Origin: Tolypothrix carrinoi HA7290-LM1
GTDB lineage: Bacteria; Cyanobacteriota; Cyanobacteriia; Cyanobacteriales; Nostocaceae
Length of the DNA: 64,000 nt
Direction of reading: 5' to 3'
NCBI GenBank assembly: GCA_019358935.1
Contig: JAHHIK010000009.1
Location: 32,001-96,000 of the forward strand
Each line of letters begins with the position of its first letter. Position 1 is the stretch's first letter. This document shows, piece after piece, positions 9,001 through 33,000 of the stretch. Position numbers: made by a program.

Positions 9001-12000
9001 GCTTAGTTCCTCATCGCTATCGCTGGAAATATTTTCTTCTAGCAATTCTTGTGCGAAGTCGGGAGTTTCTTCTTTTGTAGATTCAAATTGCACTAATTCC
9101 TGGATAGTTTTTCCAGTTGAGATGAACCCTCTAATTACGAGGCTAGCAACTTTTTCTTTGTAGCCTTCTCGTTCGTTGACTTGTAAGTCGATGTATCCGG
9201 TAGCTATGCCTTGGGAGTTTCCCCCGGAACATTTGATGTCTACGGCTGGGATACCTTTGGCACGGTAGGAAATTTCATCTATTACCGCCCCATCTTTACC
9301 CCGATAGCTAAATTCAGCTATTCCGTAAGTGATTAAACTACCCAATGAGTCGTGGGACTCATTGACGCTTTTGATTACTACTGTTGCGTTGGTTTCAATC
9401 ATGATGTTGTAAAACAATTCACTAAACGAACAATGCCCCAACCGATTGTTCTGGGCTGGGGACTTGACGAAGATATTTTTAGTAATTTGCGTTAGCAATG
9501 CTTGCGGTTTGTTTTTCTTCTTTATAGGATTTATCCTCGTTCTTTGGAGAACCTAATAATTCGATTGTTTGAACCGTTACTATTGGTTTAGACCGCATTG
9601 CACCTGAATTTTTGTCTGTCCACCTATCGAATCCAAATTCACCTACTATAGCGATTTGTGTTCCCTTTTTGACGTAATTTGCAATTACCTCGGCGGTTGA
9701 ACCCCAGGCGATAAGGTCGAACCATAATGCATTTTCACTTTTGTAAGGAGGTCTAACTGCAACCGAGATACTTGCTTTTACCGAGCCACTTTCAAAATAA
9801 CGGATTTCCGGGTCTTGACCGCAGCGTCCGACAATTGTGATGCGATTGAGATACTCGCTCATAAAATTTGTTGAAATTTTTAATACTTCAAATCCTTTTT
9901 GCGTAAGCACCTGTCTTGTTTGTGGTTGTTTGCGACTGGATGGGGGATATCCACAATTTTTCTAATATCTGGCTATCTTGTTTATCTATTGGTAGAAAAG
10001 TTATAGATACGGGAAATATATATGTATCGATTTATTAATTATTTATGGAAACATTTAAATTAGAAGTAGATGTAGCACGCTCTTTTAAATCAAGATTTAT
10101 CAAATGTAAGTTAGTCTTGCTTGCTCTAATGTGGATGCAATATGATGAAGACCAACACGGAGATGGAAGTGCTAATTACTCGTCGCCTTTATTTGTAGAC
10201 AATTCCGAATGGTGGGATAGAAATGGTGGTTCCGATGTCGAACATTTTAGAAAGGTATCTAATACAGCTCGAATTGGTGCTTGGGATGAGGTGATGTCAC
10301 TTTGTTTGGTAGACCTTCTTTCTCCCAACCCAACTTGCTTGCATGATGCTTCTTATTCTGCTCTTGTGGCAATTCTCATGCATCTTGTAGATAATGAGCT
10401 TGAGGGAAGATTTATCAACTCTACCGACCAATATTTTGCTCGCAAGATCGCTTATCAAAGCTTAAAAACTTTGGGTGAGAAATATTTTATTGGCACAGAT
10501 AGTTTTTCTCTAACTGGAATTGAGGACGGAGATCCTTTGATGTGGGGGTTGGCGCTACATTATCTTGCGCTTGAGGTTGTAGCTATAGGTGATTTTGGTA
10601 TGGCGAATAGCGATATAGATGAAGAGGGAATTGAAGATTTCCTGGACAATATGGATGATGTTGAAAGGGCTGAGTTTAACATTCAACTTGGGTTTCTGCC
10701 AGATGGTTATTTTCAGGTCTTGCCCTATGTTGAAAAATGGACTGACCGCACCGCAGTTTTATCAAGATTAATCCATAGGATAGTGTATTACATATTTGTT
10801 GGGCATGGGTATGATGCTAATTGCCTTAACGAGATAATGTCGATTCCGTTTAATTCTCGCGTCCCCACTACTTTTCAATCGTTGTTGGTTGCTGCTGTTT
10901 ATCGGGTTGGTTATTTTATAACTAATAGGGGTGTTGAGGAATGGCAGGAAAGTAGAAACTGGTTTTTATGGGAGGCTTTTTCTAATTTATTACCCTTCTA
11001 TAACAGGGGTAGAAAAGATGCTGCGGAATTGTAGGAAAAAATCAGGTTGGTTTAACCAATCCTGATAATACTTTGCTTGATTTATAGTTGCACAGCTATA
11101 ACTGCATGATAGCTGTTGGTTGTTTAAAAAAGTGATAATTGGGGATTATTTTCCTCTGTAGATTGATTGTTTAAGAGGGGTTTTTGCTTAAGCTTTTTAC
11201 CCCATTCGTTACTTGCACCCTTTACCACATAAGCGCGGATATCGGTGGCGAGAGTTTCATAATCATGCTGAATTTGTTTGTAATTGATTGGCGTTATACC
11301 AATACTTTCCCAAAGTTTATCGTAATCATAATTTGGAAATGGTTTGTGTTTGGAGAGAGTAGTATGTGAAGCCCAAAGGTATACGTTTGTCCACTCCCAA
11401 GATAGTGGAACTTCAAAAGTAATTGGCATTATTACAGCAAGCACTTCGCTTGGCGTAGCAAGTTTCCCTACCTCACCTTTATCTACCTCCTCTAGGATTG
11501 TATCTAGTCTGTCAACTACAATTGCTTGCCACACCCAATTAGGAATAGCATCCCTCCATTCTCGCCGACCAGTGATTGTGGGACCAGCTAGATATTTAAT
11601 TAATTGTGCATCCACCTCTGCTAGTTCTAACAAACAGGCGAATACCTTTCTATCCATACCCATGCTGGCTAGAATCTTAAGCATTTTTTGAATATTTGGA
11701 GTTAGTATTTTTTCTCCTTTTAATTTACTATTTTTGATTGTTTGTTCAATATCAAACAGGCTTTGTTGTTGCATTTTAACCTCCATATAAAAAGCCGTCA
11801 GCTAATTATTACTAGCTGGCGGCTGCCTTCATCTTTTGGGGATTTTTTTAGCGCAAGAGTAGGTTATCCCATACGTTTCTAGGTGATACGTGACATTGAA
11901 ATTGTTCTCTTGCTGTCGTAAAGAAAGCGAGCAATCCCGTCTTTTTAGTCTTTTCCCACCATCTTGTCTCTAAGTAGGTGAGTAATAAAGCTTGGGTTGA

Positions 12001-30000: not shown

Positions 30001-33000
30001 GTGTATTGCACATTCCGGTTCCTCCCTCAACTGTATCGAAGAAGTAGCCGACTAAGTTAGGCTGAGTTGGTTCTTCATAAAGCATAAAGTCAATATCTTT
30101 ACTACTAGCACCATGTTCAACTAGTGGTAATGCTAGCATCAGTTGATGTGCTAGACTGTGGATACAAATGTCGGTTTCTTTATATTCAAATAACTCCCTC
30201 TCCTCTTTTGGAATGTACTTCTGATTCTTTATTGGTAACCTAATTTGCTCTACTTTTGACTTGAAGAAATTTCTCGCTTGTCGGTCTATCTCAATTTGCA
30301 AACAACTGGTAGAACAGCTAATAGTCAAAGCTTCCTTATATAATACTTCTTCTACTAGTTGGATTATGTCTTTATCTGTGAGTTCGCTGTTGCATATGGA
30401 ACAGTTTTGTAGTTTACTTGCTAGAGATTGATTGTGGTTTCTGCAATCTTGGTTTGGACAAGTCCATTTTGACTCTCGATTGTATAACCTGTATCCGGAC
30501 ACTGACTCAGAGATGTTACATATTTTAGGAGTAAGTTTTATTACTCCCATTGGCAGTTTGATTGACTTTGCTTCCCCAGTAGTTTTAACTTCCTCAAATT
30601 TAATTAGTCCTTGAGGGCGGGTAAATAAATTTGTTTGTCCAATAGGCTTGAGGAAAGCTTGCCCTTCTTGGATTTTTAACTCTGATGATTTATACCAAAC
30701 TGGATTACCATCAAAATCCTGGGCTGTATAAATTGCATTAGGGTATACTTCTCTTAAAGCAGTGTTGACCGCACTTTGTTCAAACTCCTCCCCAGTTGAG
30801 GTGTTGATATAGTTGATATTGTTGCTTCTGCTCCCCCTAATCTTGATATCGCCGTGTACGTAACCTAAATTGCGGGCGCACGCTAGCTTGCTGTTGAAGC
30901 TGTACACGAGCTTGTTTTCTTGAAGAAGTTGGTTTGCGATCGCAAGTCCAGTTTGTCCGAAATGCTTGCTGATTTGGTTGATTGTCGGGCGTGACTCTTT
31001 GCAGCAGGCTAGAATATGGCACGCGAGTAGATTTTCAAAATTGGGGTTGAAGTTGATGATCTCCGGTGGGTCGGTTAACAACCGTTCGGGATTTTTCGAG
31101 TAGTAAGAGTCTAAAATAGACTGTTTGGAAGGTATGAAGACAACTAGCCCTTCTTGTTTTCTGCCGGCACGACCTGCCCTTTGCCGGAAGGATAGGATGC
31201 TTCCAGGATACTTGCAAATCAGGACGGCATCAATACAGCCGAGGTCTAACCCCGCTTCGAGAGCTGACGTTGACACGATAAACTTGATTTCCCCAGATTT
31301 GATATCTGCAATGATTTTCCTCCTTTGGTTGTTTTTCAAATTGGCGTAAAATGCAGAAATACTATTTTGGAGGTGAAATAACCCATTTTCAGTTAATATT
31401 TTGCGGATTGTTTGGGTTAGGGTTTTGACCATTTCTCTGCTGTCGCAAAAGCATATTCCCACCACATCTTTACTGACAAGTGAAGCTGCTATTTCGGCGG
31501 TTGCGTACAAAGTACTATTCTGGGGTTTGAGACTGATAAATGTGGTTTCAGCTTTTCTTGCACCGCTTTGGCTAATTACTGTAAAATTGCTTTTACGGTT
31601 GGAAATCTTTTGGGCTATCTCTTGGCTATTGCTGATAGTAGCTGAGGCAAAGATATATTGTAATTTGGATATATCACTTCCAGCTAGTTTTATCAGTAGT
31701 TGAGTGCGACGGTTTAGCAAAGCGAAATTGCTACCAAAAATACCACTATAGTAATGAGCCTCATCAACCGTGATTATGGAAATTTTGCGTAGTGTTTCAA
31801 TGAAGTTATAGTTATCAAATTGGTAGTTGGTAAGCTCGTGATTCCAAACATCGGGCGTGACGCAAATAATCGAGGGTTTATGTGTATAAAGCTTTTTGCG
31901 CTCTTGGGATGGAGTATCGCCATTAATATTTAGAATTGCGGGGCGGATAGGCTCTGGTAGGAGATTGATAAACTCCTTTATTTTCTCCTCTTGGTCAAAT
32001 GCAAGGGCTTTGAGGTTGAAGAAGATGATACATGAATTGCCTTTGAGACATTCGTGAATAACTGGAAGTAGGAATGAAATCGATTTTCCACTACTTGTTG
32101 GAGTTTCGAGAATGATATCTGATGATTGGTTGTATGCTGACCATGCTTGAATCTGGTGGGAGTATAATTGATTAATTCCTAATTGAGCGAGAGCCATACT
32201 TACTGCTGGATGGACATTTTCTGGTATTGGTTGATAGTTTGCCGCTTGTTCGGGAATTATATCGCAGTGGGCAAGTTTATTTCTACCTTCTAGCTCAGAT
32301 GCTATTTGTTGATAAATTAAACTTCTTGGAGATAGAGCATTTTGAACAGGGCTAAGATTTCCTTGTTCTATTTCCTCCCTCCAATTGAAGATAACTTGGC
32401 TAATATTCCCTTTTATGAAATGGAGATTTTCGCCAATAATTGTGCTAATTTGAATTGTTCCGTACTGTTTGGAGTAAATGCTGCGACTTGGTTGTAACCA
32501 CTCTGGTCGGTTGTTCATAAAAAACTACCTACTTGTTGTTTGTAACAAGTAGGCGTTAGCGATGGCGGTGGTTTTTATGCAAGCAAATTATAGTCATTAA
32601 TTTGTGGCTTTCAAATTTAGATAAAATTTACCGGAGAATAACCTTTCCGGTAAATCTTTATTGTAATGGGATTGTCTACGCCGCAGTAAACAACGTAATT
32701 AATTATACAATATTTCTCAATTGCCAAAAAAATAATCAAAATAATACTAGGAATTACGGTTTGTTAGATGTTTGAGGGTAATAAAACTTCTGATATAGTT
32801 ACTGATGTAGATATTGTTATTTGAAATTTTTGTATTTCAAATACGAATATGATTTAGCTTCATGATGTTTTTATATAAGTAAGTGAATTTTTATTAAAGG
32901 TAATATCAACTTGACGATTTAAATATATGGGTTAATTTGGATTATGTATGCGGGTGTTTATTTATGAATTTTGAACAGACATCTCAAGTTAATTTGATAA

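Follow-up and report, generated by a model that had tools for sequence, protein, structure and literature searches.

A 64-kb stretch of Tolypothrix carrinoi DNA (hereafter the window) carries a plasmid gene set, of a kind found on large conjugative plasmids in filamentous cyanobacteria, that we lean, tentatively, towards reading as a dispensable second-strand synthesis kit for plasmid DNA, used probably in the course of conjugation. Its family-B DNA polymerase (PolB) probably uses a clamp and loader of bacterial type, a link suggested by a conserved motif, a conserved gene position and natural HolA-PolB fusions. The set was confirmed at its coordinates, all on the minus strand. An intact 604-aa PolB with a QLTLF C-terminus (polB, 14877-16691) lies between dnaN (18988..20304), whose beta sliding clamp product has a long low-complexity C-terminal tail, and dnaX (17628..18932), for a short gamma-like clamp-loader ATPase, on one side, and holA (clamp-loader delta, 12657..13610) and holB (delta-prime, 11848..12660), which share a 4-bp overlap, on the other. 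Prim-Pol, SSB and partition genes are near, with parA-parB (family scan, 6768..8596) directly downstream of the cassette. Genes for T4SS coupling and for a TrbI-like protein also lie in the window and speak for a conjugative role, and the remainder of the host plasmid is on other contigs. The survey's finding had described an operon flanked by a prim-pol and a helicase. However, dnaX and polB are separated by 936 bp holding a 76-aa ORF and two terminator-like hairpins, which casts doubt on operon status, and the Prim-Pol and helicase genes, although present, are 11-13 kb from polB, on the far side of PRTRC-like ThiF, JAB and E2-D genes (24135..26246), a prokaryotic ubiquitin-like cassette with scores under TIGRFAM cut-offs.

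The PolB motifs (DIET54, YDLED230, DISSMHP310, KVLANSEFG367, EVDTDG417 and QLTLF600) include complete polymerase motifs, with D310 (A), K367/N371 (B), D419/D421 (C) and K464/Y466 (KxY). The DEDDy proofreading exonuclease residues D54, E56, D115, Y227 and D231 are invariant in 32/32 aligned PolBs, as are N110, D310, K367, N371, D419 and D421. A profile built from 32 homologues matches KOD polymerase at E 8.5e-74, the best PDB matches are archaeal PolBs, and PHROG 262 is matched at E 4e-28; the intact protein and the relatives that the survey had described were thus reproduced from sequence. By its intact proofreading and polymerase motifs the plasmid protein is a nucleic-acid-primed family-B DNA polymerase, and is predicted to be active. 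With a dN/dS of 0.07-0.14 (6 of 10 pairs, those with measurable dS), below that of dnaN or holA, polB is by this measure under strong purifying selection.

The protein's most likely place is in bacterial group G3 (Pol epsilon-like, EpsilonN-like), judging from a Glu before motif C, the phage range and the clamp motif. Passages of PMC7544198 and PMC12926913 describe G3 as the second commonest bacterial PolB group and a relative of eukaryotic Pol epsilon's catalytic half; it shares with the window PolB the Glu, intact exonuclease and polymerase sites and a beta-clamp motif. The Glu (EVDTDG417) is found in all 58 homologues with at least 45% identity and in 26 of 35 at 33-45%; phage N1 PolB has Ser instead. 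All 17 phage matches are to Nostocales (7) or Salinibacter (10) phages, the same two groups as the Nostoc and Salinibacter phages that PMC7544198, in the passages available, names as the only G3 phage members. The survey had taken that paper to cover only a different cyanobacterial PolB group, but its Table S2 lists close cyanobacterial homologues as "PolBmain". Distant relatives are 707-784 aa long, compared with 604 aa here, and the window PolB also differs from G3 in its steric gate. The Tyr of motif A (SLYP), typical of nucleic-acid-primed family-B polymerases though not strictly defining, is replaced by His315, which aligns with Pfu-type Tyr410. Of 120 parsed motifs, 110 have Tyr at this residue and 10 have His, and His is found in 21 of 22 close loci. 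A PolB with a natural His gate is also interesting to enzymologists. Two other assignments were tried and rejected. For group G1 (Pol II), the ExoII GWN is absent, with TYNGMEFD at 108-115 instead, and PRK05762 scores 37 against a cut-off of 570; for PolB_SITDG, piPolB and G2, in which the first motif C Asp is replaced (and, in G2, the exonuclease is inactive), both motif C Asp residues are kept and the exonuclease is intact.

The bacterial clamp and minimal loader (DnaX, delta, delta-prime) are encoded by four full-length genes, with ATPase motifs present. dnaN scores 255.6 bits against TIGR00663 (cut-off 137.65), holA 177.6 bits against TIGR01128, and holB 247.7 bits against the cyanobacterial PRK07399 (cut-off 230). 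The dnaX product, identified by TIGR02397, has 434 aa compared with 631 aa in the host and retains Walker A, DECH and SRC. The reported divergence of these genes from the host copies was borne out, at 32-44% identity. A terminal QL[ST]L[FL] occurs in 6 of 5,611 genome ORFs of at least 120 aa, and the presence of three of the six in the cassette argues that the motif is not there by chance. A C-terminal clamp motif is found in 55 of 58 PolB homologues with at least 45% identity; it is retained in plasmid PolBs but absent from phage N1 PolB. Clamp-type motifs are also seen at each end of orf220 (QQSLF ... QLSLF; 11124..11786), which is found on 12 PolB plasmids and 11 others, at the N-terminus of a DNA methyltransferase-like protein (QLSLF; 22037..23131), and at the C-terminus of orf186 (QLSLF; 27420..27980), within the PRTRC-like cassette, where the motif is kept in 4/4 homologues seen, window copy included. 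We infer that the plasmid clamp, rather than serving PolB only, is a candidate hub for four or more plasmid proteins.

Matches to PolB were found on 29 of 72,556 plasmid records, and a sample of 301 genomes from the host's family gave a match in 70. The survey had counted 19 full-length homologues, all cyanobacterial; there are indeed 19 cyanobacterial plasmids (178-395 kb), but two of these copies, from one plasmid lineage, are split by IS5, and the other 10 matches are distant homologues on Deinococcus plasmids. The PolB of pCC7120beta is 85% identical to that of the window, and phage N1 PolB is 39% identical. polB lies between dnaX and holA in 19 of 24 close loci (four of the rest are contig edges and one is disrupted) and in 6/6 distant plasmids, and dnaN and holA are present on 19/19 PolB plasmids. 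Long homologues provide natural fusions: HolA-PolB was found in 5/5 tested, all passing TIGR01128, and the window holA is homologous to the N-terminal domain of one of them, P0077 (E 2e-24). Primase or primase-associated domains were found in 26 of 31 selected long homologues, and one virus has consecutive DnaB-PolB-DnaN genes; both add support for the link to the clamp and loader. One alternative, which we consider very improbable, is that PolB is a phage-derived passenger in an older clamp/loader cassette serving host Pol III, able to use any clamp and not specially tied to the genes around it. Passages of PMC12926913 give the clamp motif as a trait of G3 in general, and cassettes without polB exist, as described below. 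Nevertheless, the position is fixed even where plasmid PolBs share only 39-56% identity with the window PolB, and the HolA-PolB fusions, the strong purifying selection and the retention of a motif missing in phage N1 all point away from a passenger.

The PolB gene can be swapped or lost. Alleles have been exchanged in place, between clamps that are 52% identical; the exchange is expected of a passenger, but its occurring in place is not. A holA cassette lacks a PolB match on 22 of 41 cyanobacterial holA plasmids, which also runs counter to the survey's view of these systems as not merely spare Pol III subunits. In G. verrucosa Cy782202 the order is DUF5895-dnaN-dnaX-holA-holB, with dnaX and holA adjacent and no gene between them, and the host genome carries another dnaN-dnaX-holA cassette, from which polB is absent. 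On T. variabilis plasmid C an IS5 element interrupts polB, whose 311-aa polymerase half is an open frame, and a 378-kb contig of another genome (G242) has broken copies of dnaN, dnaX and polB alike. Nor does "private" describe the clamp: besides the movement of polB alleles between clamp lineages, TDGHRL and LIMPV, which we take to be clamp pocket motifs, are common to plasmid DnaN and the host clamp. The more general claim, that the clamp and loader used by PolB are of bacterial type, is probable given the motif, the position and the fusions.

The Prim-Pol + PriCT-2 primase (27866..28834, family scan), which has no helicase domain, is likely the primase serving PolB: it is present on 19/19 PolB plasmids and 0/22 holA-only plasmids, a co-occurrence that further supports the clamp/loader link. 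It is 33% identical to the N-terminus of the primase-PolB fusion P0184 (E 9e-41) and shares 30-32% identity with a plasmid replication protein of the pANS type. orf261 (14089..14874) begins 2 bp after the polB stop; its homologues are directly behind polB in 16/16 plasmid matches, on 16 of 19 PolB plasmids, and family and profile scans gave no match. From this conserved place it is a candidate accessory factor and may be a dedicated PolB subunit. The protein of orf171 (8983..9498) ends in EELSEVPAF (DEEPPF or SDIPF in relatives), which we liken to an SSB acidic tail; BLAST found no match between it and the adjacent SSB. The DUF5895 protein upstream of dnaN (20377..21288; Pam3 gp34-like by family scan) has an acidic-aromatic tail in 9/11 copies and is a possible ssDNA-binding factor. 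The ssb product itself (9479..9910, PF00436) lacks an acidic tail and is 66% identical to the pCC7120beta SSB. Its presumed orthologue by length, position and termini, the 127-aa Alr7579 of pCC7120beta, is a weak binder of long ssDNA according to passages of PMC3976300.

The helicase (29816..32518, family scan) is a DEAD-box protein with an MrfA Zn-binding domain, not DnaB-like. MrfA-type helicases have a role in repair, and an unlikely reading is that the cassette is a repair or gap-filling module resembling E. coli Pol II, in which this helicase opens damage and PolB fills in on either clamp, the His gate possibly relaxing sugar selection. The non-consensus His315 and motif B F374 would fit this role, as would, in passages of PMC12926913, the description of bacterial PolBs as accessory enzymes and the depletion of Y-family enzymes in cyanobacteria. 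While Alr7579 overexpression reportedly increased mitomycin C survival (PMC3976300, in part), a review states in the passages available that a role of alr7579 in UV or mitomycin tolerance was not demonstrated (PMC5101192). Moreover, His is a working steric gate in PolD (PMC7708050). Prim-Pol, for which a repair polymerase has no need, tracks PolB, whereas the helicase does not: at E of at most 1e-40 it is on 15/19 PolB plasmids and 10/22 holA-only plasmids, and so goes with clamp cassettes. A LexA-box pattern had no match in the window.

Extrapolating from the gene content, motifs, conservation, co-occurrence, fusions, allele swaps and broken copies to physical interactions, activities and timing, we propose that the kit would convert primed single-stranded plasmid DNA to duplex. 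Prim-Pol would lay the primer on a strand coated by SSB-like proteins, the gamma-type DnaX/HolA/HolB would load the plasmid beta clamp at the primer end, and the G3 PolB would dock via QLTLF and copy with proofreading. The complementary strand would be made during conjugation, as the recipient second strand or the donor replacement strand. polB is upstream of the relaxase gene, on the same strand, in 16/16 plasmids with a listed relaxase match (at 14-47 kb in 8, 77-99 kb in 6 and >200 kb in 2), a leading-region geometry that, reflecting shared ancestry, does not amount to 16 independent cases. Against this timing, the typing of two of the PolB plasmids inspected is non-mobilizable or mobilizable, and an ssDNA-promoter-like stem was not found in the one intergenic stretch folded in detail. 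The kit would be of use without being essential, since host Pol III could substitute.

The survey's word "replisome" is harder to sustain, given the short DnaX, the breakage of polB or the whole cassette on some replicons, and the failure to find a DnaB or SF3 family among 62 scanned window proteins or in the pCC7120beta annotation; that annotation, which is incomplete, has no Rep, DnaB, DnaG or DnaE entry. With neither a replicative helicase nor a long DnaX, complementary-strand synthesis fits better than a coupled fork. The main rival reading, possible but in our view doubtful, is that the cassette is the vegetative replicase: Prim-Pol would initiate or prime, PolB would copy a 180-390 kb replicon on the plasmid clamp, the helicase would be a host or an SF2 enzyme, and host Pol III would be in reserve. 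The plasmids would then be replicated at least partly by a Pol epsilon-like PolB as main replicase on a bacterial clamp and DnaX loader, with a widespread His-gate allele, orf261 as a possible subunit and, in some relatives, a delta-polymerase fusion; we hold this fuller version equally doubtful. If true, a clamp-coupled PolB would here be the main replicase of a bacterial replicon. The adjacent parAB, the replication-protein-like primase, the lower dN/dS of polB, and relatives among primase-helicase-PolB fusions, phage polymerases and the viral DnaB-PolB-DnaN run count in its favour. So do pCC7120beta, T. variabilis plasmid C and pCHRO.01, three of the five PolB plasmids checked, which have no CyRepA or CyRepX entry in the available part of PMC10899382. 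Against it, pP742402 and pANACY.02 additionally carry CyRepA or CyRepX, plasmid C persists with a split polB (its polymerase half still open) and no listed Rep, the cassette has decayed on the 378-kb contig, a DnaB-like helicase was not found, and DnaX is 200 aa shorter than in the host.

The component parts are known, and their use as one kit is a proposal. PolB on pCC7120beta, pP742402 and A. variabilis plasmid C was reported in 2016 (Chenard et al., PMC4916379), whose cyanobacterial plasmid / Nostoc phage A-1/N-1 Pol B group is the same family as the window PolB; the available text contains neither "clamp" nor "DNA polymerase III" and does not treat neighbourhood, motif or mechanism. The beta-clamp binding motif of G3 is stated in PMC12926913, which calls the group experimentally uncharacterized and in its available text does not use the word "plasmid". 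These two papers remove the survey's basis for novelty; what appears new is the link of PolB to a plasmid clamp and loader, for which our literature search found no paper, and which sets the window PolB apart from G3 as described. In pCC7120beta, the G3 enzyme and its candidate clamp, loader, primase and SSB partners are present in a genetically tractable strain, so function is directly testable. The cassette may also explain the copying or establishment of several large cyanobacterial plasmids without known Rep.

E. coli DNA polymerase II (G1) is likewise a family-B enzyme that proofreads and has a clamp motif, and its clamp is loaded by the DnaX complex, but it is chromosomal, SOS-induced, from another clade (ExoII GWN rather than TYN), uses the host clamp and is encoded without a cognate clamp, loader or primase. 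Plasmid Pol III subunits are known, with dnaN, holA and dnaE matched on 300, 49 and 2,256 plasmid records, some of them chromosome-sized, and we take the subunit cluster of pCC7120beta to be long annotated. The polymerase beside the clamp genes is PolB here, and no plasmid dnaE at least 60% identical to the host enzyme was found among the matches listed (45 of 2,256). T4-like replisomes are also encoded by mobile elements with their own PolB, clamp, loader, SSB and primase, but include a replicative helicase, and their clamp and loader are archaeal/eukaryotic-like (PMC7544198, in part) rather than bacterial DnaN and DnaX/HolA/HolB. Finally, in HelPrimPolB-type fusions, close PolB homologues are joined to Prim-Pol/PriCT-2 and DUF3987, DUF5906 or DUF927, whereas the plasmid version is split, with only the primase part nearby and a clamp and loader added.

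The PolB cassette is a real, conserved and common module, present in 70 of the 301 genomes of the host family and in 12 of 401 genomes across the phylum, several of the latter being partial. In the window, which lies on a 108.7-kb contig (C9) of the 7.96-Mb host cyanobacterial assembly, the minus strand reads helicase, Prim-Pol, a ThiF/JAB/E2 cassette, methyltransferase, DUF5895, dnaN, dnaX, polB (14877-16691), orf261, holA, holB, orf220, ssb, orf171, parA and parB, and the backbone is colinear with that of the Nostoc PCC 7120 plasmid pCC7120beta. The motifs, the identities to the host copies (32-44%) and the plasmid counts in the survey's finding were all reproduced. 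Its description of the genes as an operon was not borne out, given terminator-like hairpins after dnaX and after the 76-aa ORF that precedes polB. A gene with the inferred label mobC-like lies near the left end of C9, and a relaxase homologue was found on another contig, C96.

The catalytic residues of both the exonuclease and the polymerase are invariant in all 32 aligned PolB homologues, and dN/dS for polB is 0.07-0.14 where dS is measurable. Motif C reads EVDTDG. In the sections of PMC7544198 available, the Glu of this motif marks Pol epsilon-N, B10 and the bacterial, Pol epsilon-like group G3; the only non-bacterial G3 carriers named in those sections are Salinibacter and Nostoc phages, and Table S2, as far as available, lists close homologues from cyanobacteria under the main PolB group. 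A phage search with PolB gave 17 matches, comprising 7 Nostocales and 10 Salinibacter phages and no others. We infer membership of G3. A search of viral sequences with the alignment recovered 51 loci, and a scan with the single protein recovered none. The plasmid PolB and its clamp motif are already known from the accessible parts of two papers: PMC4916379 reports the same PolB on three cyanobacterial plasmids, with the clamp unmentioned in those parts, and PMC12926913 describes G3 as having a beta-clamp motif and as uncharacterized. The literature searched, which misses most subscription journals, yielded no paper that connects this PolB with the clamp and loader of the plasmid. The parts of the cassette are known, and their combination was not found described in this incomplete sample.

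Evidence tying PolB to the clamp, loader and primase comes from gene content, gene order and protein fusions. Each of the 19 cyanobacterial plasmids with PolB also has dnaN, holA and Prim-Pol; since the plasmids compared are kin, the counts given here and below describe one lineage, not independent trials. polB sits between dnaX and holA at 19 of 24 close loci, the other five being cut by contig ends (four) or disrupted (one), and the same placement holds in 6/6 more distant plasmids, where PolB identity is 39-72%. By a strict pattern, the C-terminal clamp motif is found in 55 of 58 homologues of at least 45% identity, in 7 of 35 at 33-45% and in 4 of 18 below that; the PolB copies of phage N1, Salinibacter phage and D. 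deserti lack it. Five homologues of 934-939 aa are HolA-PolB fusions, each exceeding the TIGR01128 cut-off. A metagenome scan found no genomic context for them, so the sole argument against assembly chimeras is that they are five distinct sequences, from JGI, NCBI, ENA and Logan. P0050, a DnaX-PolB join, was not counted as a fusion, as PolB residues 1-198 are missing and it looks like a deletion product.

Clamp-type motifs extend to other proteins. Three further cassette proteins have them at a terminus, conserved in relatives, and such C-termini occur in 6 of 5,611 ORFs of the genome. orf261 lies directly behind polB in all 16 plasmid matches and had no Atlas match; DUF5895 had no PDB sequence match, and its Atlas ties are only to DUF5895/Pam3 gp34 clusters. 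On a 64-kb viral contig (L062, 5742-11025), DnaB helicase, a G3-type PolB ending in QLSLFSQLA and its own DnaN are consecutive. This is the one dnaN match among 21 viral loci checked; no dnaN lies within 8 kb in L059, which is closely related. Terminal clamp-type motifs were also seen on other clamp-bearing plasmids (L052 22820-23842, L053 21224-22240, L054 20474-25669, L004 922-5124), their bearers being HolB N-termini (QLDLL, QLELL), a 1,731-aa protein and a 1,400-aa DNA methyltransferase. Plasmid DnaN proteins of this family have a low-complexity C-terminal stretch, roughly 60-80 aa long and basic at its end (window 19200-18988 region), that the host clamp lacks. orf171 was rejected as an SSB paralogue, having no BLAST match to the adjacent SSB.

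The primase link is seen in fused proteins as well. Among 31 long homologues chosen from the best 150 profile matches, 26 have primase or primase-associated domains, and the window Prim-Pol matches the N-terminus of one primase-PolB fusion at E 9e-41. DUF3987, DUF5906 and DUF927 are presumably helicase domains. Many fusions of 1,200-1,900 aa (P0127-P0255) combine primase, helicase-like domains and PolB, the named sources seen being Thermosynechococcaceae; one, P0139, also has a Dam methylase domain. The primase link and the PolB fusions are less well explained if the cassette is a repair module, which we consider improbable, or if polB is a phage-derived passenger, which is very unlikely.

Copying a single strand into a duplex needs a primase, SSB, clamp, short loader and polymerase; a fork helicase is not needed on single-stranded templates. 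The plasmid DnaX is 434 aa long versus 631 aa for the host protein, and neither the 62 window proteins scanned nor the pCC7120beta annotation includes a DnaB-type helicase. In all 16 plasmids with a listed relaxase match, the direction of transcription of the cassette is toward the relaxase, within 47 kb in 8 of them, and leading-region genes have this orientation too. This gene set and orientation favour a model, which we hold tentatively, in which the cassette serves complementary-strand synthesis in conjugation, where the kit would copy the single strand into duplex. Vegetative replication by the cassette is a strong rival, if a rather unlikely one: the primase has sequence similarity to a pANS-type replication protein, the cassette adjoins parAB, and CyRepA and CyRepX are absent from 3 of 5 PolB plasmids looked up in the available part of PMC10899382. 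Conjugative and vegetative uses are not mutually exclusive.

Other evidence argues against a private, obligatory replisome. The holA plasmids, 49 less one short fragment and 7 non-cyanobacterial plasmids, form a set of 41 whose match covers at least 74% of the query, and 22 of these have no PolB match; Prim-Pol is on none of the 22. Four of the 22 were inspected and have dnaN and dnaX, with polB absent within 15 kb of holA. Moreover, the histories of polB and the clamp disagree. The window dnaN is 87% identical to that of Brasilonema and 52% to that of pCC7120beta; for polB the values are 72% and 85%. In AU tests on 11 sequences, with groupings borrowed from the other gene's tree, both clamp groupings were rejected with the polB data (p-AU 3e-7 and 5e-29), as were both polB groupings with the dnaN data (p-AU 6e-4 and 3e-4). 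All four pairings of the two clamp types with the two polB types exist, indicating that PolB is not locked to one clamp. In T. variabilis plasmid C, polB is split by IS5 with the polymerase half still an open frame, and on a 378-kb contig of genome G242, dnaN, dnaX and polB are all broken. The short DnaX and the missing DnaB-type helicase also count against such a replisome, and an MrfA-type helicase is on 15 of the 19 PolB plasmids versus 10 of the 22 holA plasmids without a PolB match. The host genome also holds a second plasmid-like cassette, dnaN-dnaX-holA-parA-parB (L003, contig C173, 2952-8882), with a helicase-like ORF upstream; polB and holB are both absent from that contig.

PolB His315 aligns with the steric-gate Tyr410 of Pfu-type enzymes, a feature of PolB that we did not find in print. 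His occupies this position in 10 of 120 parsed motifs and at 21 of 22 close loci, and it appears on two branches of a quick tree, one of the window/pCC7120beta type and one of the Calothrix type. PolD works with a His gate, according to the available part of PMC7708050, and by analogy relaxed sugar selection by PolB is possible.

RNA-run contigs span 29 of the 30 bins in X1 and X10 and 14 of 30 in X21, and X4 gave one flat contig; neither strand nor expression level can be read from such contigs, which may also include DNA, so they are not evidence of transcription. A promoter scan gave 38 sites versus 41.6 expected, and a LexA-box pattern had no match in the window. A single-stranded DNA promoter in the intergenic region 16692-17288 was rejected, as its fold z of -4.1 arises from local hairpins, including a terminator-like one. 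At 63466-63800 a 20-22 bp repeat occurs six times, as three direct tandem copies and three inverted ones around an AT-rich core, with an extra partial copy near 63983; an integrase-like gene (by inferred label) is about 2 kb away. The iteron-like 22-bp array matches 27 plasmids and parts of it match other Nostocales plasmids; it is absent from all 19 PolB plasmids and was therefore rejected as the origin of that family. It may be an iteron, a resolution site or a small mobile element.

Several further features lie in the window. An actin-like ParM-type gene (3067-4323, plus strand) is 2.4 kb from parB, making two adjacent partition systems; in pCC7120beta the two systems are about 65 kb apart, with cargo between them that is mostly for metal resistance. 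The start of parA (8533-8580) has short tandem repeats that may be a partition site. A conserved acidic 329-aa ORF (10045-11034, plus strand) is flanked by orf220 and ssb on the opposite strand, and its homologue on contig C141 is again beside an ssb. The backbone also contains an HNH/restriction-type endonuclease gene (36646-37470, minus strand) and a Siphovirus Gp157-like gene (60882-61484, minus strand), and a 28-bp doublet (33877-33932) lies upstream of the helicase.
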